Shown piece after piece: positions 1-21,924 of a stretch of DNA of 21,924 bases (position 1 is its first letter; each line of letters begins with the position of its first letter). The stretch lies in the IMG/VR virus record IMGVR_UViG_2609459845_000023, positions 1-21,924 of that record, one strand, 5' to 3'. The translations under genes were made by a program, and so were the position numbers. This stretch comes from a virus (Duplodnaviria > Heunggongvirae > Uroviricota > Caudoviricetes). Under the pieces are notes generated by a model. That model saw nothing but the letters and a program-made list of their open reading frames with translations, ran no database searches and had not been told where the DNA came from.

Positions 1-1284
1 TTACTTCTTCGCCTCTGCAACCACTTTACTACCCACGCCGCGGTTATTGTATTCCCACATGCGGTTGTAGTTAGTGTCATTCAGATTGCGCTGTATTTCG
101 TCGTTATCATCTACGCTGCCGGTATTACCCGCAAACGGACGATTAGAGATCACCGCATCGGCCCACGGTTTAGCCGTGTTAAAACCTTCGTTGATGGCGC
201 TATCACGGATCACCACCTGACCGTTGGTATTGGCATCAACATCCAGCGAGCGGCCCAGTTGCGCCACACCATCACCGAAAGCATTGAAACGGCTGTTTAC
301 GGCGAGGAAACCGTAGTAAATGTTGGACAGCGTAGCCGGTGCAAACACATACGCTTCTTGCTGAGTACGTGAGTTCACCACGCGGAATTCGGTGTTATCG
401 AACACCACTGCGCCGCGACCAGAAACGATATCCACATCCCCTTCAATGTAGCTGTTGGTCACCAGCGTACGCGGCTGACGATTTGTTTCCAGACGGTTCT
501 GCACACCGCTGTTGGTGACAAAGAAGGTGTTCTGACGACCGAGAATGTTAACGTTGTTAATCTGTACCTGGTCACCATCAGTACGCAGTGCCACCGCCGG
601 ATGGTTACCTGCATCTACGCTATCGCCCAGCGTGTTTTCGATGGTCAGATTTTGCAGTTGCAGGCCATTGTTTTGTGACCAGAAGACCGCAGAGCAGAGA
701 ACACCGATACTGTCGCTGCGTTTGCTCTGGCAGCTATCGTACATATACCACGCTGGTTTACCTGGCATATATTTGCCGCGCGGGTTGACGTCGTGACGCC
801 AGTCGGCAGGGCTCATGCCACCATCAAGGGAAAGCCCAATCTTCACATCAATCGGTTTTTCACCTGTACCGTACAGAGTAATTCCACCCGGAGCGGCAGG
901 GACATATACCGTTCCCTGATACTCACCAGGCATCACGGCAATATACTGGCGCTTGTTGGTACGCTTGATAATTGCCGCATCTACCGCCGCCTGAATCGTG
1001 GTATGCGTTACACCTTGAGTGCCCGCCGGGCCGACAACAAAGTCAGGTTGCGCAGGCAGGGTAATCGGGGAAGGATTCCACGCTGCAGCACCTGGTGTCA
1101 GGGATGCAAAATAGTGTTGAGCATCGAAATTCTGCGCTTCTTTTGCCGACAGAATCGGGCGAGAAGAGGTACCAGGCGCGGTTTGATCAGAAGGACGTTG
1201 ATCGGGCGGGGTTGAGCTACAGGCGGTCAGCGTCACGCCAAAAGCCAATGCCAGCGCCAGACGGGAAACTGAAAATGTGTTCAC
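1..1284 (-). CDS. ybhC: host outer-membrane lipoprotein YbhC (pectinesterase-fold / acyl-CoA thioesterase family)
   Basis: 427-aa ORF from track; N-terminal lipoprotein signal MNTFSVSRLALALAFGVTLTAC (lipobox LTAC); recognised as E. coli YbhC, the gene flanking attB-lambda on the gal side; GC-normal composition. Confidence 0.85.
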   Translation of the reverse strand: MNTFSVSRLALALAFGVTLTACSSTPPDQRPSDQTAPGTSSRPILSAKEAQNFDAQHYFASLTPGAAAWNPSPITLPAQPDFVVGPAGTQGVTHTTIQAAVDAAIIKRTNKRQYIAVMPGEYQGTVYVPAAPGGITLYGTGEKPIDVKIGLSLDGGMSPADWRHDVNPRGKYMPGKPAWYMYDSCQSKRSDSIGVLCSAVFWSQNNGLQLQNLTIENTLGDSVDAGNHPAVALRTDGDQVQINNVNILGRQNTFFVTNSGVQNRLETNRQPRTLVTNSYIEGDVDIVSGRGAVVFDNTEFRVVNSRTQQEAYVFAPATLSNIYYGFLAVNSRFNAFGDGVAQLGRSLDVDANTNGQVVIRDSAINEGFNTAKPWADAVISNRPFAGNTGSVDDNDEIQRNLNDTNYNRMWEYNNRGVGSKVVAEAKK

Positions 1285-1330
1285 AGGTTGCTCCGGGCTA
1301 TGAAATAGAAAAATGAATCCGTTGAAGCCT

Positions 1331-1345
1331 GCTTTTTTATACTAA
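1331..1345. other. attL: attL core (O) of lambda site-specific recombination; lambda P' arm follows to about 1418
   Basis: exact 15-bp lambda common core GCTTTTTTATACTAA; right flank GTTGGCATTATAAAAAAGCATTGCTTATCAATTTGTTGCAACGAACAGGTCACTATCAGTCAAAATAAAATCATTATTT matches the lambda attP P' arm; left flank ...GTTGAAGCCT is the bacterial B arm. Confidence 0.92.
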
Positions 1346-1418
1346 GTTGGCATTATAAAAAAGCATTGCTTATCAATTTGTTGCAACGAACAGGTCACTA
1401 TCAGTCAAAATAAAATCA

Positions 1419-2489
1419 TTATTTGATTTCAATTTTGTCCCACTCCCTGCCTCTGTCATCACGATACTGTGATGCCATGGTGTCCGACTTATGCCCGAGA
1501 AGATGTTGAGCAAATTTATCGCTTATCTGCTTCTCATAGAGTCTTGCAGACAAACTGCGCAACTCGTGAAAGGTTGGCGGATCCCCTTCGAAGGAGAGAC
1601 CTGATGCTTTTCGTGCGCGCATAAAATACCTTGATACTGTGCCGGATGAAAGCGGTTCACGACGAGTAGATGCAATTATGGTTTCTCCGCCAAGAATCTT
1701 TTTGCATTTATCAAGTGTTTCCTTCATTGATATCCCGAGAGCATCAACATGCAATGTTGTTGGGATGGCAATTTTTACGCCTGTTTTGCTTTGCTCGACA
1801 TAAAGATATCCATCTACGATATCAGACCACTTCATTTCGCATAAATCACCAACTCGCTGCCCGGTAACAACAGCCAGTTCCATTGCAAGTCTAAGCCAAC
1901 ATGGTGATGATTCTGCTGCTTGATAAATTTTCAGGTATTCGTCAGCCGTAAGTCTTGATCTCCTTACCTCTGATTTTGCAGCGCGAGTGGCTGCGACCGG
2001 GTTTGTTGTTATATGGCCTTCAGCCATAGCCTCTCGGAATGCATCGCTCAGTGTTGATCTGATTAACTTGGCTGATGCCGCCTTTCCCTCGTCTATGTAT
2101 CCATTGAGCATTGCCGCAATTTCTTTTGTGGTGATGTCTTCAAGTGGAGCATCAGGCAGACCCCTCCTTATTGCTTTAATTTTGCTCATGTAATTTATGA
2201 GTGTCTTCTGCTTGATTCCTCTGCTGGCCAGGATTTTTTCGTAGCGATCAAGCCATGAATGTAACGTAACGGAATTATCACTGTTGATTCTCGCTGTCAG
2301 AGGCTTGTGTTTGTGTCCTGAAAATAACTCAATGTTGGCCTGTATAGCTTCAGTGATTGCGATTCGCCTGTCTCGGCCTAATCCAAACTCTTTACCCGTC
2401 CTTGGGTCCCTGTAGCAGTAATATCCATTGTTTCTTATATAAAGGTTAGGGGGTAAATCCCGGCGCTCATGACTTCGCCTTCTTCCCAT
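1419..2489 (-). CDS. int: lambda integrase (tyrosine recombinase)
   Basis: 356-aa ORF; MGRRRSHERRDLPPNLYIRNNGYYCYRDPRTGKEFGLGRD... matches lambda Int essentially full length; 3' end 74 bp from att core as in lambda. Confidence 0.97.
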   Translation of the reverse strand: MGRRRSHERRDLPPNLYIRNNGYYCYRDPRTGKEFGLGRDRRIAITEAIQANIELFSGHKHKPLTARINSDNSVTLHSWLDRYEKILASRGIKQKTLINYMSKIKAIRRGLPDAPLEDITTKEIAAMLNGYIDEGKAASAKLIRSTLSDAFREAMAEGHITTNPVAATRAAKSEVRRSRLTADEYLKIYQAAESSPCWLRLAMELAVVTGQRVGDLCEMKWSDIVDGYLYVEQSKTGVKIAIPTTLHVDALGISMKETLDKCKKILGGETIIASTRREPLSSGTVSRYFMRARKASGLSFEGDPPTFHELRSLSARLYEKQISDKFAQHLLGHKSDTMASQYRDDRGREWDKIEIK

Positions 2490-16997: not shown

Positions 16998-17028
16998 TTT
17001 TTTTGCAAATCACAAAGTCAATTTAATG

Positions 17029-17083
17029 AGCCTCGCGATGCGGGGCTTTTTGCAATAAATGCGTACCGCAACGCATGTTTTTT
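17029..17083 (+). terminator. tandem intrinsic terminators ending the rightward operon
   Basis: hairpin AGCCTCGC-GAT-GCGGGGCT + TTTTT (about 17029..17051), then ATGCGT-ACCGCA-ACGCAT + GTTTTTT (17059..17083). Confidence 0.6.
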
Positions 17084-17198
17084 ACACCGAACCTGCCCCT
17101 TTGGAATGGGCCTTTGAGGATACCAGTTAGTGCTGGCGAGCCTCGGTGGGCTGGTTTCCTATGCGGCAAAGGTTCATTTCAAATGGTAGGTAAACGTT

Positions 17199-17720
17199 AT
17201 GAATATCGTGCCACTTAATTACAAAGGTGAAATTGTCAGTTTCAACACTGATGGTTGGATCAACGTCACAGGTGTTGCTGAGAGATTTGGAAAACGCATT
17301 GATAACTGGATGCGTTTGGCAGAAACGCTTGAATACGTTCGTGCTTTAGACGAAGCGTTGACCGGGAAAGAATCTCAAATTTTACATCCCTCACAATCGA
17401 GGTATGTAAAAACCAGCAAGGCACGAAAGGACAGGGGTGGTGGTACGTGGCTACATCCAAAACTTTCAGTTGCATTTGCCCGTTGGTGTGATGCTCGTTT
17501 TGCTGTGTGGTGCGACCTGCACATTGATAGTCTGCTTCGCGGTGAACTGACTGAGCAGCAGAAATATGAGCAAGCATGTCGCATTCGCGATGACCGGAAA
17601 TCAAAAGCCAGCAATGGGGCAAGAGAGATGGCTCGCTGGCGATGGGATAAGCCGGTTATTGAAGCAAATGTTGAGTACTGGCGCGAGCAACTGCAGTTGA
17701 CTCTCGATATCGCGTGCTGA
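17199..17720 (+). CDS. KilA-N domain protein (173 aa)
   Basis: track ORF; N-terminal pattern DGWINVTGVAERFGKRIDNWMRLAETLEYVRALDEAL fits the KilA-N / APSES-type DNA-binding signature; SD GGTAGG upstream. Confidence 0.65.
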   Translation: MNIVPLNYKGEIVSFNTDGWINVTGVAERFGKRIDNWMRLAETLEYVRALDEALTGKESQILHPSQSRYVKTSKARKDRGGGTWLHPKLSVAFARWCDARFAVWCDLHIDSLLRGELTEQQKYEQACRIRDDRKSKASNGAREMARWRWDKPVIEANVEYWREQLQLTLDIAC

Positions 17721-18177
17721 TGGCAAACGCAAAACTGCGTTATCGGAAAAATCAAAGCATTACGAGAACTGAGCAACGGCTATCCATTACAAAGCCCATC
17801 TACGGGTGGGCTTGATAATGAAACCGGAATTTATTCTTGGCAACCAGTTACGGCAGTACCACAAAACAACCCAAGCCAGTAAGTGGGGAAATAACACTGG
17901 CAGCCACTGAAAGATGAACCTCCTGCCTTATGGCAAAAAAGATTCTTTGTTGTGGCGGACTGATGGAAAGACATCGGTTATTGCAGAGGCCATTCAATGA
18001 GTGGTCTCGACAATGGCTTATACCCTGCACGGGATAACTTAACTGATATCCCTTTTAACGGATAAACGGAGCCAACAATGGCAGAGCTCACAGACAAACA
18101 AGAGCTGTTTGCCCATCCGGATGATGTGTATGTCGGAGAGTGTGTGATTTATACCGGCTACCGGGCAAGTTCCGGAT

Positions 18178-18513
18178 ATGTCATCCTTTACCTATACAAC
18201 AACCGGGTCTGGTGTGGTTATTCGCCTTCCTGGCAATATGATCATCCAGATGGATGTAGGTACAACGGACAGTAACGGATTTTATAATGTGAATATGGGT
18301 GTGGCGATGAGCTCATACCAGGTATTTGCAGTAGAAGGCCATGTCTCTGGATGGACAGCCTCCGGCGGTATCTATCAACTCTTAACCGTGTATGGTGCCG
18401 AAAAGGTTAACGCAGGGAGCTTTAATGTTCGTTCTGCAACCTGGAGTTCGTCCGACCACAACTTTACTGCGCAGCCAACAGTTTTTAACTGGATTGCTAT
18501 CGGGAGAGCGTAA
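18178..18513 (+). CDS. probable 3' remnant of a side tail-fibre gene (C-terminal domain, 111 aa)
   Basis: track ORF; stop overlaps the tfa start (TAATG) as in stf-tfa pairs; the frame is open from about 18148; overlapping ORF 18078..18275 in another frame suggests a 5' truncation or frameshift. Confidence 0.45.
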   Translation: MSSFTYTTTGSGVVIRLPGNMIIQMDVGTTDSNGFYNVNMGVAMSSYQVFAVEGHVSGWTASGGIYQLLTVYGAEKVNAGSFNVRSATWSSSDHNFTAQPTVFNWIAIGRA

Positions 18514-18977
18514 TGTCTGATTCAGATTTTTTATATAGTGCCAAAAGCAACGCTTTTGTTTTCAAGGAAAGCTCTCTGTTAAAGACGGACGAATACAGTG
18601 ATGCTGTGCCGGTTGATATGGGTGTTTTCGCCGAATTTTACCCAACAGTTAAAGACGGCATGCGAAGGGTTGCAGGGCCAGACGGCATGCCTGCGTGGGA
18701 AAAAATTCCCGAGCCAACTAAAGAAGAACTGTTCGCGCTTAAACTGGCACAGGCCGAGTCAAAGAGAGATGCGTTAATCTCTGCGGCTAACGCATATATA
18801 AGCAGCGAACACTGGCCTTCTAAGCTCATTCTGGAGATCATCACCGATGAAGAGAAGGCGACCTTTAAAGAGTGGCTTGCTCATATCGATGCCTTGAAGA
18901 AAATGAAGTTTAATGATGAAGCAGCGATATTAAGTGACAGCCTTGAATGGCCGCCACGTCCTGCTACCGCGTCGTAA
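18513..18977 (+). CDS. tfa: tail-fibre assembly protein (Tfa family)
   Basis: 154-aa ORF; C-terminal region (...EELFALKLAQAESKRDALISAANAYISSEHW...EEKATFKEWLAHIDAL...LEWPPRP) resembles the conserved Tfa C-terminal domain ending in an EWP..P motif. Confidence 0.75.
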   Translation: MSDSDFLYSAKSNAFVFKESSLLKTDEYSDAVPVDMGVFAEFYPTVKDGMRRVAGPDGMPAWEKIPEPTKEELFALKLAQAESKRDALISAANAYISSEHWPSKLILEIITDEEKATFKEWLAHIDALKKMKFNDEAAILSDSLEWPPRPATAS

Positions 18978-20025
18978 TCTCCTGGCGTTTCAGCGCCGAA
19001 CGGGCCAGACGGATAAACGGTTTTTCAATTATCCGGTTAGCTGCGAATGCCATCATCAGAGAAGCAACAAGCATGCAGGGGACAAGGACGCCCCAGTGCT
19101 TATACTCCCCAATCGGAATAAATTTCTGTACCATCTGCATTACCAGCCAATGACAGAGATAAATGCTATATGTCAGGTCGCCAAGAATTGATAATGCTTT
19201 TATCTCTCCCGCCTTTGATTTATCCAGCATCAAAACGCCCACAAAAAATATTGCAGCAAAAAAGAACATTCCTTCTATACCGCTGGTATGGTCTGAGAAT
19301 GTGAAGAAAAAATAGAAAAATAAAGCCGATGCGAATATTGCTATAGTAATAGCAGTTAAGTTAGGAAGAATTAATTTAAACCTTTCAAATATCATTCCAG
19401 ACATAATCCCAAACGCAAACTCATAAAACATCGTTGAGCCTGCCAGCCTGATTAGACCATAAAACGGCGAGTCAGCAGGAGGGATAGCGGTGACTGTGCT
19501 GTTAAACGACAACCCTCCATTAAACGCAACCTGTAGCACTGCCGGGATTGCAATCAGCAGCGCGATACACAATGAACCTCGATACCGGGTCGTTATTGCA
19601 GCGCACATACAGAAAATAGCGTAGAACGATATTTCATAAGTCAATGTCCACGCGGGCGGTAGCAGATTAAATCCAAACGCCGGAGCGGGTAGTGTGTAAT
19701 CGTTGTGCAGAACCAGAAAACCCCTGGATAATTGTGTGGCAGGCGCAGGTTGCAATAACAACGAAACCAGTAACACAACAAAAAATAGCGGGTATATTCT
19801 GGCGAATCGTTTAACAATAAATACCGTTGGTCTGCATTCCTCAGGATTTATTGTTGACCAATAAATAATAAATCCAGAGATAATGAAAAAAATATCAACG
19901 CCCACCATGCCATTTGCAAATAAATTAGCAAACCAGCGCGGAGTAAAAAAAGAAAAATGGTACAGCACCACAAGTAGCGCTGCTATTCCACGAAGATACT
20001 GGACGGAAAATATTTTATTGTTCAT
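18964..20025 (-). CDS. acyltransferase-3 family integral membrane protein (O-acetyltransferase-like)
   Basis: track ORF 18964..20037 (TTG); likely ATG start at 20025 (MNNKIFSVQYLRGIAALLVVLYHF...); multiple hydrophobic helices; AT-rich; converges on tfa with a 14-nt overlap. Confidence 0.8.
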   Translation of the reverse strand: MNNKIFSVQYLRGIAALLVVLYHFSFFTPRWFANLFANGMVGVDIFFIISGFIIYWSTINPEECRPTVFIVKRFARIYPLFFVVLLVSLLLQPAPATQLSRGFLVLHNDYTLPAPAFGFNLLPPAWTLTYEISFYAIFCMCAAITTRYRGSLCIALLIAIPAVLQVAFNGGLSFNSTVTAIPPADSPFYGLIRLAGSTMFYEFAFGIMSGMIFERFKLILPNLTAITIAIFASALFFYFFFTFSDHTSGIEGMFFFAAIFFVGVLMLDKSKAGEIKALSILGDLTYSIYLCHWLVMQMVQKFIPIGEYKHWGVLVPCMLVASLMMAFAANRIIEKPFIRLARSALKRQEITTR

Positions 20026-20059
20026 TATGTGGCCCAATTTTCATTGAGCCACAATTATA

Positions 20060-21346
20060 TCAGAAAACCCCCTCAACCCACAACTGGCCATCAAAGCACA
20101 CCATTCTAAACAGACGTGATGCGGCGTTCCCGCCAGCCGCCACTACCAAATCAGCATCAAATATCGCCATGCCATTAGCCGGGTGGTACAGGTCGCCGAC
20201 AGCCTGTTTAAGCGTCAGATCACCAGCTCCCGGCGTTGCGCTTCGGACCATCAGATAAAACGAACTCCCGTCCGGGTAAACAGTTGGCAGCGCATTGATT
20301 GTCACGTTACCGGATAACCCCTCGGTGAAATAACAATGTCCAGTTTCAGGCCACCAGATTAAATCAGTAGCGTTGATATTGCTCGTTCCCGCTACATCAA
20401 TGAGCTTGTGGATTTTCCCTGGCTGTAAATCCCCGGAGTTTGCACAGAACAGCGCCGACAGTTGCTGCAATGCGGTTTCACTATCGCGCCAGTTCAGCAC
20501 ATTTGTAATAGTCCCGCGCTTAATTCTGCCGTCAAACAAAACGGGGCGCTCTGGCGTGAACGTCACGAAGTCTTTCGTGTCTACAAAATAAGTCCATTTT
20601 TTTGTGTCGAAAAAATCCGCATAGATTCTGATCGTGCCGTCCGGCAAATAAACCAGCGCCGGGCCTTCCGCCGCCTGAGTAAACGGAATTACTGATAATT
20701 TCGTGAACTGTCCTGAGAAACAATTTGAACAATACACCTCAATTTTTTTGGTGATTTCATCTTTTATTGTCAGGTAATACGTCTGGAATATTCTGGAAAA
20801 AACAGAATCAATCATGTTTTTTGGTTCGATATTTACCGCAACCGGATCGTAAAACTCCAGTCTCTCAACATCAGAACAGACAGAATAGAATGTTTTAAAA
20901 CTTTTGACATTTACACCTTTACTGTCAGTCTGATCGTTGTAATAACGCAGGCTGACTATCAGGAACAGATTTTCGTCATCAACAAACCATTCAGGAGCCC
21001 ACACGTCAGTGGTCACCAGATCTGAACCCGGTAATCGTTTCCCACAGACTGGCGTATCGCCAAGCTTAATTCGTACCAGTTCCCACACGGTTAAATCACG
21101 TGAGCGCCAGCAATCGACGTCATAAACGTTTTCTGTATATCCTGATACGGCTATTAACCACCAACCGTTGTGATAAATAATTGATGGGTCTCTCCCTAAA
21201 ACTTCTCCAGTTCCACCAATAGCCCAAAGGAATTGAGCCTTTATTTTTTCGAATCGTTCTCCATCATAAGATAATGCCAGGTTTACTTTTGAGCTTTGGT
21301 CACTTTCAAAAAAAGAACCAACAAACAGCGCGGAATTATTTTTCAC
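20060..21346 (-). CDS. hypothetical protein (428 aa), upstream partner of the acyltransferase
   Basis: track ORF; only possible start is GTG at 21346 (in-frame TAA two codons upstream) with weak SD; no signal peptide; family not recognised. Confidence 0.65.
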   Translation of the reverse strand: MKNNSALFVGSFFESDQSSKVNLALSYDGERFEKIKAQFLWAIGGTGEVLGRDPSIIYHNGWWLIAVSGYTENVYDVDCWRSRDLTVWELVRIKLGDTPVCGKRLPGSDLVTTDVWAPEWFVDDENLFLIVSLRYYNDQTDSKGVNVKSFKTFYSVCSDVERLEFYDPVAVNIEPKNMIDSVFSRIFQTYYLTIKDEITKKIEVYCSNCFSGQFTKLSVIPFTQAAEGPALVYLPDGTIRIYADFFDTKKWTYFVDTKDFVTFTPERPVLFDGRIKRGTITNVLNWRDSETALQQLSALFCANSGDLQPGKIHKLIDVAGTSNINATDLIWWPETGHCYFTEGLSGNVTINALPTVYPDGSSFYLMVRSATPGAGDLTLKQAVGDLYHPANGMAIFDADLVVAAGGNAASRLFRMVCFDGQLWVEGVF

Positions 21347-21436
21347 GATGATTTACCGATTGGATATTTATATTTAAAGACAATTTAAATTTATAATAAA
21401 TGTCCCAAAATTGCTCACTATTTGGTTATGGGAAAT

Positions 21437-21480
21437 AACGATCAAAATCTTCAAATCGATCGGTTGCAACGATCAAAATC
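21437..21480. repeat. 13-bp direct repeat AACGATCAAAATC x2 (31-bp spacing) with three GATC sites
   Basis: read directly at 21437..21449 and 21468..21480; GATC at about 21440, 21458 and 21471; lies in the divergent intergenic region. Confidence 0.6.
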
Positions 21481-21490
21481 CATGCATTGG

Positions 21491-21510
21491 TACTGTATGT
21501 ACATACAGTG
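21491..21510 (+). promoter_or_regulatory. LexA operator (SOS box) upstream of the umuD-like gene
   Basis: TACTGTATGTACATACAGTG contains a perfect 16-bp palindrome CTGTATGTACATACAG fitting CTGT-N8-ACAG; 16 bp upstream of the start codon. Confidence 0.8.
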
Positions 21511-21525
21511 CCAATGAGGTGAGTT

Positions 21526-21924
21526 ATGGTTGCCATGTCACAGTTTCCCAGCCCTGCTGCTGATTACCACGAGGATGCGATCTCACTCGACAAGGAGTTG
21601 ATACGAAAACCAGCGGCGACATTCTTCATCCGTTACGCTGCTACATCATGGCGGGAAGGAATCAAGAGAGGTGCTCTGCTGGTCATGGACACATCGCTGA
21701 CTCCGGTAGACGGAAGCCTGGTGATTTGTCATCTGAATGACCAGATACGGCTGTTGCGTCTCAGGCTGCTGCCAAAGGTGCACCTGGAAGAACTGGACCA
21801 CGCTGATAAAAAGACATGGATAACTGACGACGATTGTGAGGAACGAGTCGTAGTGAAGGGGGTGGTGACGTACATCATCAATGACGCGCGGACTGGTGAG
21901 TTTGATGACTACCCGCTGAAGTGA
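21526..21924 (+). CDS. UmuD'-like protein (LexA/UmuD S24 family), 132 aa
   Basis: track ORF; FPSPAADY motif and overall alignment to the E. coli UmuD C-terminal domain; SD GAGGTGAG upstream; begins near the position of the UmuD Cys24-Gly25 cleavage site. Confidence 0.7.
   Translation: MVAMSQFPSPAADYHEDAISLDKELIRKPAATFFIRYAATSWREGIKRGALLVMDTSLTPVDGSLVICHLNDQIRLLRLRLLPKVHLEELDHADKKTWITDDDCEERVVVKGVVTYIINDARTGEFDDYPLK

Follow-up and report, generated by a model that had tools for sequence, protein, structure and literature searches.

The window analysed here, a stretch of 21,924 nucleotides from the IMG/VR virus record IMGVR_UViG_2609459845_000023, is a decayed E. coli prophage carrying at its right end a pair of genes for an acyltransferase-3 (AT3) protein and a 428-aa protein, and the latter is, by fold and homology, the catalytic head of phage tailspikes without the virion anchor. 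Our preferred explanation, held tentatively and at a little less than an even chance, is that the two genes form a mobile cargo (moron) cassette of prophages and manage the cell-surface glycan that is used as phage receptor. The two genes are:

18964..20025, minus strand: stand-alone AT3 membrane O-acyltransferase, 353 aa, assigned by Pfam Acyl_transf_3, PHROG 3333 and motifs

20060..21346, minus strand: putative anchorless tailspike-type glycosidase (GH), 428 aa, assigned by AF2 fold, homologues and conserved acidic residues

Both reading frames are real, intact and coding, and evolve under purifying selection (dN/dS approximately 0.06-0.15). An earlier note on this DNA, made from the sequence alone, had named a non-coding 428-aa frame as one finding that would speak against its view; the frame is coding, since it has 316 homologues, a well-defined AF2 model (pLDDT 91) and a dN/dS of 0.075 between orthologues. 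The GTG start and the weak ribosome-binding sequence remarked upon there are both present, and the GTG start is genuine, because a TAA in frame stands two codons ahead of it and the orthologues L001, L018 and L036 have an ATG at this residue as their start. The ribosome-binding sequence of the AT3 gene is weak as well. This gene had been listed as 18964-20037 from a TTG, and since its orthologues and the gene callers begin at the ATG at 20025 (MNNKIF...), we corrected its start accordingly, which yields 353 aa; its dN/dS values of 0.06-0.15 indicate purifying selection.

The acyltransferase assignment of the earlier note stands. The protein scores 118.4 bits against Pfam Acyl_transf_3 (PF01757; cut-off 31), covering profile positions 3-323 of 326, and it matches PHROG 3333 O-acetyltransferase with an E-value of 1e-56. 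AT3 proteins are defined by R-X10-H in TMH1 and RXXR at TMH3 (PMC9833829), and the 353-aa protein possesses R12-X10-H23 and RFAR at residues 73-76 (RXXR), next to FFIISG at residue 46. A crude Kyte-Doolittle scan detects 7 strongly hydrophobic segments, the family type having approximately 10 TM helices. To any AT3 of sequenced phages the protein is only about 25-37% identical. Its gene overlaps the tail-fibre assembly gene tfa by 14 bp, 3' end to 3' end on opposite strands, so that the pair converges on tfa, as had been proposed. The neighbouring features on that side are:

18153..18161, strand not applicable: deletion junction with a 9-bp overlap, at which late-region DNA after KilA-N is fused to the middle of a tail-fibre gene

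18178..18513, plus strand: 5'-truncated tail-fibre remnant, 111-aa ORF (PHROG 1396 tail fiber protein, E 6e-5)

18513..18977, plus strand: tail-fibre assembly protein (tfa), 154 aa (Pfam Caudo_TAP, E 2.4e-14; PHROG 188, E 2e-28)

The junction is evident from blastn against locus L016, of which two separated stretches match positions 17001-18161 and 18153-21924 of the window at 99.9%; the homology to an intact lambdoid prophage ends at 18066. Head and tail genes have all been lost from the prophage in the window. The 111-aa remnant, whose match to Gp53-like_C is weak, corresponds to the C-terminal part of a 243-aa fibre, and the full 243-aa gene is kept in L008 and L013. The module had been described as AT-rich; there is indeed an AT bias across the gene pair, but with a GC content of 0.39-0.50 it is only moderate. 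An Rfam search of 17700-21924 returned no non-coding RNA at E 0.1 or better.

The 428-aa protein had been attributed to an unknown family, with a glycoside hydrolase or a beta-propeller offered as a guess. The guess was a good one and the attribution has to be given up, as the protein belongs to the widespread catalytic heads of phage tailspikes. In the AF2 model (pLDDT 91.1), a five-bladed beta-propeller (approximately residues 5-285) is joined by a linker helix (289-304) to a C-terminal beta-sandwich (approximately 305-428), and the top Foldseek matches in the PDB are GH159, GH43 and GH62 (E 5e-10 to 1e-7). The protein is thus modelled as a GH43/GH159-type five-bladed propeller plus beta-sandwich. 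Glycosidase activity and substrate are predictions, because the scores for GH43 (PF04616; 25 bits) and GH32N (20.2) lie below the Pfam gathering cut-offs of 32.2 and 22.1, respectively; the NCBIfam search gave no match. In an alignment of 45 homologues D76, D180 and E227 are invariant and D53 is near-invariant. D53 lies in GRDPS and E227 in AEGP, and when D53, D180 and E227 are compared with the GH43 catalytic triad scheme of an Asp base, an Asp pKa modulator and a Glu acid, their order and spacing, as judged from sequence, are GH43-like. The propeller hydrolases of the CAZy clans GH-F and GH-J (GH43, GH62, GH159 and GH32) and the GH130 phosphorylases share the fold. In contrast to them, the 428-aa GH stays below the family thresholds, and its substrate is presumably a bacterial surface polysaccharide and not plant arabinan, xylan or fructan. 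The protein looks cytoplasmic, as had been noted, having neither a signal peptide nor a TM-like segment, and the hydrophobic stretch at its N-terminus is a propeller strand in the AF2 model.

The 316 detectable relatives are mostly phage tail-spike or tail-fibre proteins of 600-1000 aa, and all informative ones among them are tail proteins. There, the GH module comes after an N-terminal virion anchor, and the accompanying domains are Tail_spike_N or Phage_tail_fib at the N-terminus and Peptidase_S74 at the C-terminus. The homology to tailspikes begins at residue 5-8 of the 428-aa GH, and the N-terminal virion-attachment domain is absent from it. Of the relatives with an anchor, the closest has 994 aa and 47% identity, and the 118-kb phage contig that encodes it carries at least three tailspikes, this one included. 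Among 50,697 phage genomes, matches were restricted to Pantoea phage PdC23, Propionibacterium phages and Lactobacillus phage LpeD; the genes concerned carry annotations as tail, minor-tail or tail-fibre proteins in PdC23 and the Propionibacterium phages, and as hypothetical protein only in LpeD. The 428-aa GH furthermore matches PHROG 18920 ('tail protein'). A homologue with 61% identity occurs in Ewingella (WP_459176991.1). Scanning 185,579 species-representative genomes with a pattern yielded a single, distant match in Lachnospiraceae, and the search of IMG/VR yielded two identical E. coli copies in addition to anchored tailspikes. A literature search for GH43 tailspikes found no match, and it is conceded that little is understood of phage depolymerase domains of the beta-propeller type (PMC12491483).

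A close comparison is with tail proteins that carry a GH43-like propeller head, i.e. the Ackermannviridae tailspikes of the CBA120 TSP1-4 type, the tail fibre of PdC23 and the tail-collar fibre P0004 of a Serratia fonticola prophage. These proteins have the same propeller and C-terminal beta-sandwich, share 31-47% identity with the 428-aa GH over nearly its whole length and conserve the acidic residues. Unlike them, the 428-aa GH possesses neither the Tail_spike_N or Phage_tail_fib anchor, nor a second copy of the C-terminal module, nor a Peptidase_S74 chaperone, and its gene runs antisense to the tail operon. Its C-terminal domain resembles the XD/gp10-like docking domains of tailspikes, and for this reason a role in the virion would also fit. 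The protein would then be a structural accessory receptor-binding protein, docked non-covalently on the short fibre or the baseplate, for instance via this domain, so that the virion gains a depolymerase and AT3 is a separate neighbouring moron. We consider this unlikely.

The same relatives bear on the idea of a metabolic cargo, in which a cytoplasmic GH43-type exo-glycosidase (arabinofuranosidase, xylosidase or galactosidase) would act on imported plant oligosaccharides and would be unrelated to AT3 and to phage receptors. Members of the family are named 'family 43 glycosylhydrolase' by NCBI, the best matches among solved structures are exo-acting GH43 and GH159 enzymes, and many bacterial GH43 enzymes are cytoplasmic. 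However, the GH43 match does not reach the Pfam threshold, the nearest relatives are all tailspikes and not catabolic enzymes of bacteria, the tailspike-type C-terminal module is common to them, the gene is accompanied by neither a transporter nor a regulator, and it is strictly linked to AT3 and tfa across different backbones. Such a metabolic function is improbable.

The GH-then-AT3 cassette was seen in three prophage backbones of E. coli and Cronobacter, and it always adjoins the 3' end of an opposite-strand tfa at the prophage end. Its copies share 70-100% protein identity and are accompanied by differing baseplate modules, one of them Mu-like. The cargo position at the right end of the prophage, as postulated earlier, recurs in about 20 related assemblies. 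AT3 is found at this spot also without the GH, while the 428-aa GH was never seen without AT3; since the cassette is rare and known from a few dozen assemblies, these co-occurrence statistics are thin. An Enterobacter AT3 that is 43% identical lies tail-to-tail with a decayed GH43-like tailspike, which resembles the tailspike-plus-modifier layout of Sf6 and P22. The second finding that the earlier note had named as contrary to its view was an AT3 that is a conserved chromosomal gene. We reject this, as AT3 is present in none of 5,426 complete RefSeq E. coli genomes and always lies beside a phage tfa; by megablast, the DNA from 18066 to 21859 has no match in these genomes or in phage genomes. 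The cassette marks a hot-spot for morons on the downstream side of tfa, common to unrelated phage backbones, and even if its function turned out to be an ordinary one, it would be a clean example of such a hot-spot.

The position next to a fibre gene and tfa also recalls the invertible tail-fibre segments of the Mu G, P1 C and e14 P type, of which the pair might be a relic, with the 428-aa frame as an alternative fibre C-terminus that becomes fused to the constant part after inversion. Fibre, tfa and two opposite-strand genes do mimic the Sv-U / U'-S'v layout, the N-terminal anchor of the homologues has about the size of the constant part of the fibre, and in L020 a C-terminal remnant of a Pin/Gin-type invertase lies upstream of AT3. 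Yet neither the window nor two intact prophages contain inverted repeats that join the fibre gene and the 5' end of the GH gene, and the GH frame has a stop two codons upstream and a conserved start of its own (ATG in the orthologues). Moreover, the window is devoid of an invertase gene, the only remnant being that of the unrelated locus L020, and the place expected for a chaperone is occupied by a membrane enzyme, AT3. On the basis of the repeat searches, the upstream frame and the start codons of the orthologues this reading was rejected; it is very improbable.

Returning to receptor management by a cargo cassette, we infer that AT3 and the GH serve lysogenic conversion, and the substrate and the site of action given in the following are meant in the same sense. 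AT3, as an enzyme of the 10-TM type, would move an acyl residue, probably the acetyl of acetyl-CoA, through the inner membrane and attach it as an ester to a polysaccharide of the cell surface, most probably the O-antigen. This acylation would change the serotype and mask the receptor, as in the case of Oac of phage Sf6. The GH, of the GH43 clan, would derive from a receptor-destroying tailspike head and would act on the same glycan as AT3, namely as a free enzyme, because the virion anchor is lost and an export signal is missing. In the intact cell, a cytoplasmic GH has no obvious access to the surface glycan. It is possible, that the GH is set free on lysis of induced cells and then strips the receptor from debris and neighbours, or that it trims lipid-linked repeat units at the cytoplasmic face.

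For the release on lysis there is a precedent in the soluble, burst-released phage depolymerases PghP of Bacillus phage phiNIT1 and LevP, a levanase (PMC6966330). Both are, like the proposed GH, free non-virion phage enzymes that degrade polysaccharides, but they belong to a lytic phage and are expressed late, whereas the GH gene has a temperate prophage cargo position and is coupled to an acyltransferase. LevP is presumably a five-bladed-propeller (GH32) enzyme. On the acyltransferase side, the closest counterparts are Oac of Shigella phage Sf6 and OacB/C/D, which are likewise stand-alone AT3 enzymes that acetylate the O-antigen and come from serotype-converting phages. The AT3 of the window is like them an AT3-only protein of about 350 aa with R-X10-H and RXXR, is likewise encoded at a prophage end beside receptor-binding genes, and its expected effects are again acetylation of a surface glycan and a block to superinfection. 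Salmonella OafA and OafB carry an extra SGNH domain. What differs from the Oac type is that the AT3 gene of the window is preceded by and co-oriented with the gene of a tailspike-derived glycosidase, and we know of no described seroconversion module with such a glycosidase ahead of the acetyltransferase.

In enterobacteria, prophage genes for O-antigen modification have a hand in the serotype, in vaccine targets and in the susceptibility to phages, and to our knowledge they comprise so far glucosyltransferases (gtr), acetyltransferases and polymerase inhibitors. A conserved cassette of an acyltransferase and a tailspike glycosidase that is free of the virion would extend this repertoire by hydrolysis, and it would show how enzyme domains for receptor binding are reused as cargo that the host expresses. 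In its fullest form, this proposal would have a tailspike head freed from the virion and wired to a receptor-masking AT3 in one cargo operon, possibly phase-variable (Dam/OxyR-type) and/or SOS-linked, with the free GH altering or removing, inside the cell or once it has lysed, the O-antigen or some other glycan of the surface, while acylation protects or converts the lysogen's own glycan. In all its parts together it is rather unlikely, and we are not aware that seroconversion and superinfection exclusion by two enzymes in this manner have been described so far. The small, soluble, monomer-sized GH would be a handy entry point to the substrates of beta-propeller depolymerases.

The divergent intergenic region between the GH gene and humD (21347-21525) holds the sites that had been summarized before as a LexA/GATC-rich region, and both kinds of site are confirmed:

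21437..21480, strand not applicable: GATC cluster with sites at 21440, 21458 and 21471, lying within two 13-bp direct repeats (AACGATCAAAATC)

21491..21510, strand not applicable: LexA (SOS) box TACTGTATGTACATACAGTG, 2 mismatches to the consensus, 0 matches in 100 shuffles

21526..21924, plus strand: HumD-family (UmuD'-like) S24 peptidase, 132 aa (NCBIfam HumD equivalog, 171 bits against a cut-off of 120)

The GH and AT3 genes may be co-transcribed and regulated by the LexA box or by the GATC/OxyR-like site. By consensus scan, no minus-strand sigma-70 promoter was detected upstream of the GH gene, and two terminator-like matches fall inside coding sequence. Since the upstream regions of E. coli and Cronobacter align only at the LexA box and the first codons, a conserved promoter is not definable.

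An equivalent LexA box is present in Cronobacter (L018). This SOS box in the common upstream region would suit an enzyme-plus-immunity device for competition or defence, in which released GH removes the glycan from neighbours that are not lysogens, so that these are sensitised or rival phages are blocked, and AT3 acylation renders the glycan of the lysogen resistant; so would the fact that AT3 occurs alone but the GH was never seen without AT3. That free tailspikes could make stripped cells phage-insensitive has been discussed (PMC6966330). On the other hand, the box precedes humD by 16 nt and the GH start by 145 nt, and is thus placed for humD rather than for the cassette. In addition, the PADLOC models gave no match for the GH, AT3 and HumD proteins, on which ground a known defence system was rejected, and the idea is purely inferential and overlaps with our preferred explanation. 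We regard such a device as quite unlikely.

The GATC cluster is a candidate Dam-dependent switch by its sequence. It is the sole place in the whole window with three GATC within 50 bp, and its GATC pair 13 bp apart lies in GATCGGTTGCAACGATC (21458-21474), which fits an OxyR half-site at 8/10 positions and is the only match to the degenerate half-site in the window (0.08 expected). The gtr-type arrangement of OxyR and GATC sites served for comparison (PMC2909390). In P22 gtrABC and Salmonella opvAB, as in the cassette, a GATC pair 13 bp apart in an OxyR-half-site-like sequence lies upstream of a prophage glycan-modification operon. Dam/OxyR switches of the gtr, opvAB and agn43 type have their GATC sites inside OxyR half-sites that are placed for alternative binding of the tetramer. 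In contrast to these systems, the cassette has one half-site and three GATC but no full tetramer site, inspection by eye 22 bp either side of the first half-site revealing no convincing second one; the LexA box is adjacent, and the Cronobacter version lacks the GATC/OxyR-like site. The divergent neighbour humD lies outside the cassette, and the 66 bp at its end match phage HK140 in the UmuD-like/attP region.

The best-supported reading of this region, which we hold tentatively, is that the 428-aa GH gene and the AT3 acyltransferase gene form a mobile cargo cassette managing a surface-glycan receptor, the function being predicted throughout. The relevant features are:

18513-18977, plus strand: tfa, tail-fibre assembly gene, 3' end overlapped over 14 bp by the AT3 3' end
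18964-20025, minus strand: AT3, acyltransferase of 353 aa
20060-21346, minus strand: GH, 428 aa, GTG start
21491-21510: near-consensus LexA box, at a distance of 16 nt to humD and 145 nt to the start of GH
21526-21924, divergent from GH and preceded by the LexA box: humD, complete, UmuD'-like (HumD equivalog, 171 bits)

Both open reading frames of the pair (GC content 0.39-0.50) lie where the earlier note had placed them. AT3 was listed from a TTG at 20037, but the start according to its orthologs and to gene callers is the ATG at 20025. The GTG start proposed for the 428-aa frame was borne out: two codons before it there is an in-frame TAA, and the orthologs start with ATG at the identical residue. 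The start is therefore real, and GH does not represent the variable end of some longer gene. That the pair is the remnant of an invertible fibre segment is hardly credible.

The earlier note had assigned the 428-aa protein to no known family and guessed at a glycoside hydrolase or beta-propeller fold. The guess was right, but the protein does have relatives. Its Pfam matches to GH43 and GH32N are both sub-threshold, and a profile search against PDB sequences gave local matches only, to GH32, GH130 and GH43. When 1.84 billion representatives were searched exhaustively, 316 homologs were retrieved, almost all of 600-1000 aa, in which the similarity begins 100-360 residues in and which additionally carry an N-terminal Tail_spike_N or Phage_tail_fib part and a C-terminal Peptidase_S74. 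The closest anchored relative (994 aa, 47% identity) belongs to a run of three or more successive tailspikes on a 118-kb phage contig, and an IMG/VR relative has 913 aa and 41% identity. In sequenced phages, all matched genes bear tail, minor-tail or tail-fibre annotations, except for a hypothetical protein of Lactobacillus phage LpeD. The 428-aa protein is thus the catalytic head of a tailspike without its anchor. That it docks on the virion as an accessory spike is unlikely.

In the AlphaFold2 model (45-sequence alignment, pLDDT 91.1), a five-bladed propeller (residues ~5-285) is followed by a helix (289-304), and a beta-sandwich (~305-428) makes up the C-terminus. In Foldseek, the propeller groups with GH159, GH43 (beta-1,3-galactosidases, xylosidases) and GH62. 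D76, D180 and E227 are invariant, while D53 (in GRDPS), WAP116-118 and RHG276-278 are nearly so. Judging from the alignment, D53, D180 and E227 are predicted to be base, pKa modulator and acid, as their order and spacing match those of GH43. Given the tailspike parts of the homologs, we consider a metabolic GH43 enzyme carried as cargo very unlikely. GH has neither a transmembrane nor a signal-like segment; the hydrophobic residues at its N-terminus form the first strand of the propeller.

AT3 matches Pfam Acyl_transf_3 with 118 bits (cut-off 31) and PHROG 3333 "O-acetyltransferase" with an E-value of 1e-56, and possesses the family motifs R-X10-H (R12...H23) and RXXR (R73-R76). It lacks an SGNH domain and is AT3-only, like Oac of phage Sf6; among sequenced phages, no AT3 is more than 37% identical to it. 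AT3 would acylate a surface glycan and thereby mask the receptor. Cleavage of the same glycan would fall to the free glycosidase derived from a tailspike, at the cytoplasmic face or following lysis. Free phage depolymerases released at burst are a precedent (PMC6966330), and beta-propeller depolymerase domains are frequent in prophages and poorly understood (PMC12491483). We regard the cassette as putative prophage seroconversion cargo. An enzyme-plus-immunity logic, with the cassette as a competition device, is quite unlikely; PADLOC matched none of GH, AT3 and HumD to known defence models.

The layout of the cassette (GH, a gap of ~34-70 nt, AT3, converging on tfa) recurs in L001, another assembly, and in Cronobacter turicensis (GH 77%, AT3 83% identical). 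In L036 (1-4200) it adjoins tfa in a Mu-like prophage whose baseplate differs, being of the Mu gp44-48 type (GH 70%, AT3 76%). This argues that the cassette is passed from one unrelated tail module to another and retains its short 3' overlap with tfa in every case. Ewingella has a 428-aa protein 61% identical to GH. The dN/dS values are 0.075 for GH and 0.06-0.15 for AT3. The tfa product is 98% identical to that of C. turicensis L018 (9055-9519), far above AT3 and GH, so the parts are mosaic; these identities indicate that the fibre/tfa module was probably exchanged recently between genera, with a breakpoint near the tfa-AT3 overlap. Among the loci examined, no 428-aa GH lacked its AT3 partner, whereas a 72%-identical AT3 occupies the equivalent spot without any GH. 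Directly upstream of this AT3, at 7563-7667 of L020, the C-terminal HTH part of a Pin/Gin-type DNA invertase survives as a remnant, which hints that this site formerly held an invertible fibre segment.

In Enterobacter (L022, 8001-10331; also L023 and L024), a small prophage remnant near pncB/pepN, with Arc-domain and integrase fragments, carries an AT3 of 43% identity. It is arranged tail-to-tail with a GH43-like tailspike gene that has decayed (26% identity, in-frame stops, N-terminus lost). Here the AT3 clade and this tailspike head are linked independently, in the tailspike-plus-modifier layout of Sf6 and P22.

Between GH and humD lies the only triple-GATC cluster of the window (21437-21480), with two 13-bp direct repeats (AACGATCAAAATC). 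Within it, GATCGGTTGCAACGATC (21458-21474) matches an OxyR half-site at 8/10 positions, resembling the gtr/agn43 type, and contains two GATC sites with the 13-bp spacing of the gtr operons (PMC2909390). As a lead rather than a finding, the cluster is a candidate Dam-dependent phase-variation switch. Cronobacter has the LexA box and an S24 gene in an equivalent arrangement, but not the OxyR-like/GATC feature. A consensus scan defined no promoter upstream of GH, and Rfam found no RNA families in 17700-21924.

The window derives from E. coli: ybhC comes first, followed by the lambda-type integrase, the early region of a lambdoid prophage, lysis genes and KilA-N. Homology to intact relatives stops near 18066, and a 9-bp overlap at 18153-18161 marks an internal-deletion junction joining DNA downstream of KilA-N to the middle of the tail-fibre gene. 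The deletion removed all head and tail genes and left the last 119 codons of the 243-aa fibre; this prophage cannot form virions, yet its cassette is intact. The stretch 18066-21859 has no DNA-level match in 5,426 complete RefSeq E. coli genomes or 50,697 phage genomes, but a few dozen assemblies, drafts or from read archives, contain it at 99.9-100% identity.

In those assemblies whose prophage is intact, the baseplate genes (Baseplate_J, Wedge1) are followed by the 243-aa fibre and tfa. AT3 and GH come next, on the opposite strand, and after them a divergent humD-like gene and chromosomal dacD-sbmC-yeeA-yeeX, in agreement with the right-end cargo position suggested earlier. In L006-L016, the matching right arm (tfa-AT3-GH-humD) adjoins these chromosomal genes beside CP4-44-like genes, whereas the left flank of the window (1-2489), with ybhC and the lambda-type integrase, is the lambda attachment site. 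The differing flanks suggest either an exchange of integration modules or recombination between two prophages (chromosomal inversion). The stop codon of humD is the exact end of the window. Since the last 66 bp of humD match phages HK140, HK544 and mEp234 in their UmuD-like/attP region, this end may be the phage side of an attachment site. The intact lambdoid relative in E. coli NT1F25 (L005) has, between Q and the lysis genes, a porin gene annotated as ompC (29203-30285) that the prophage of the window lacks.
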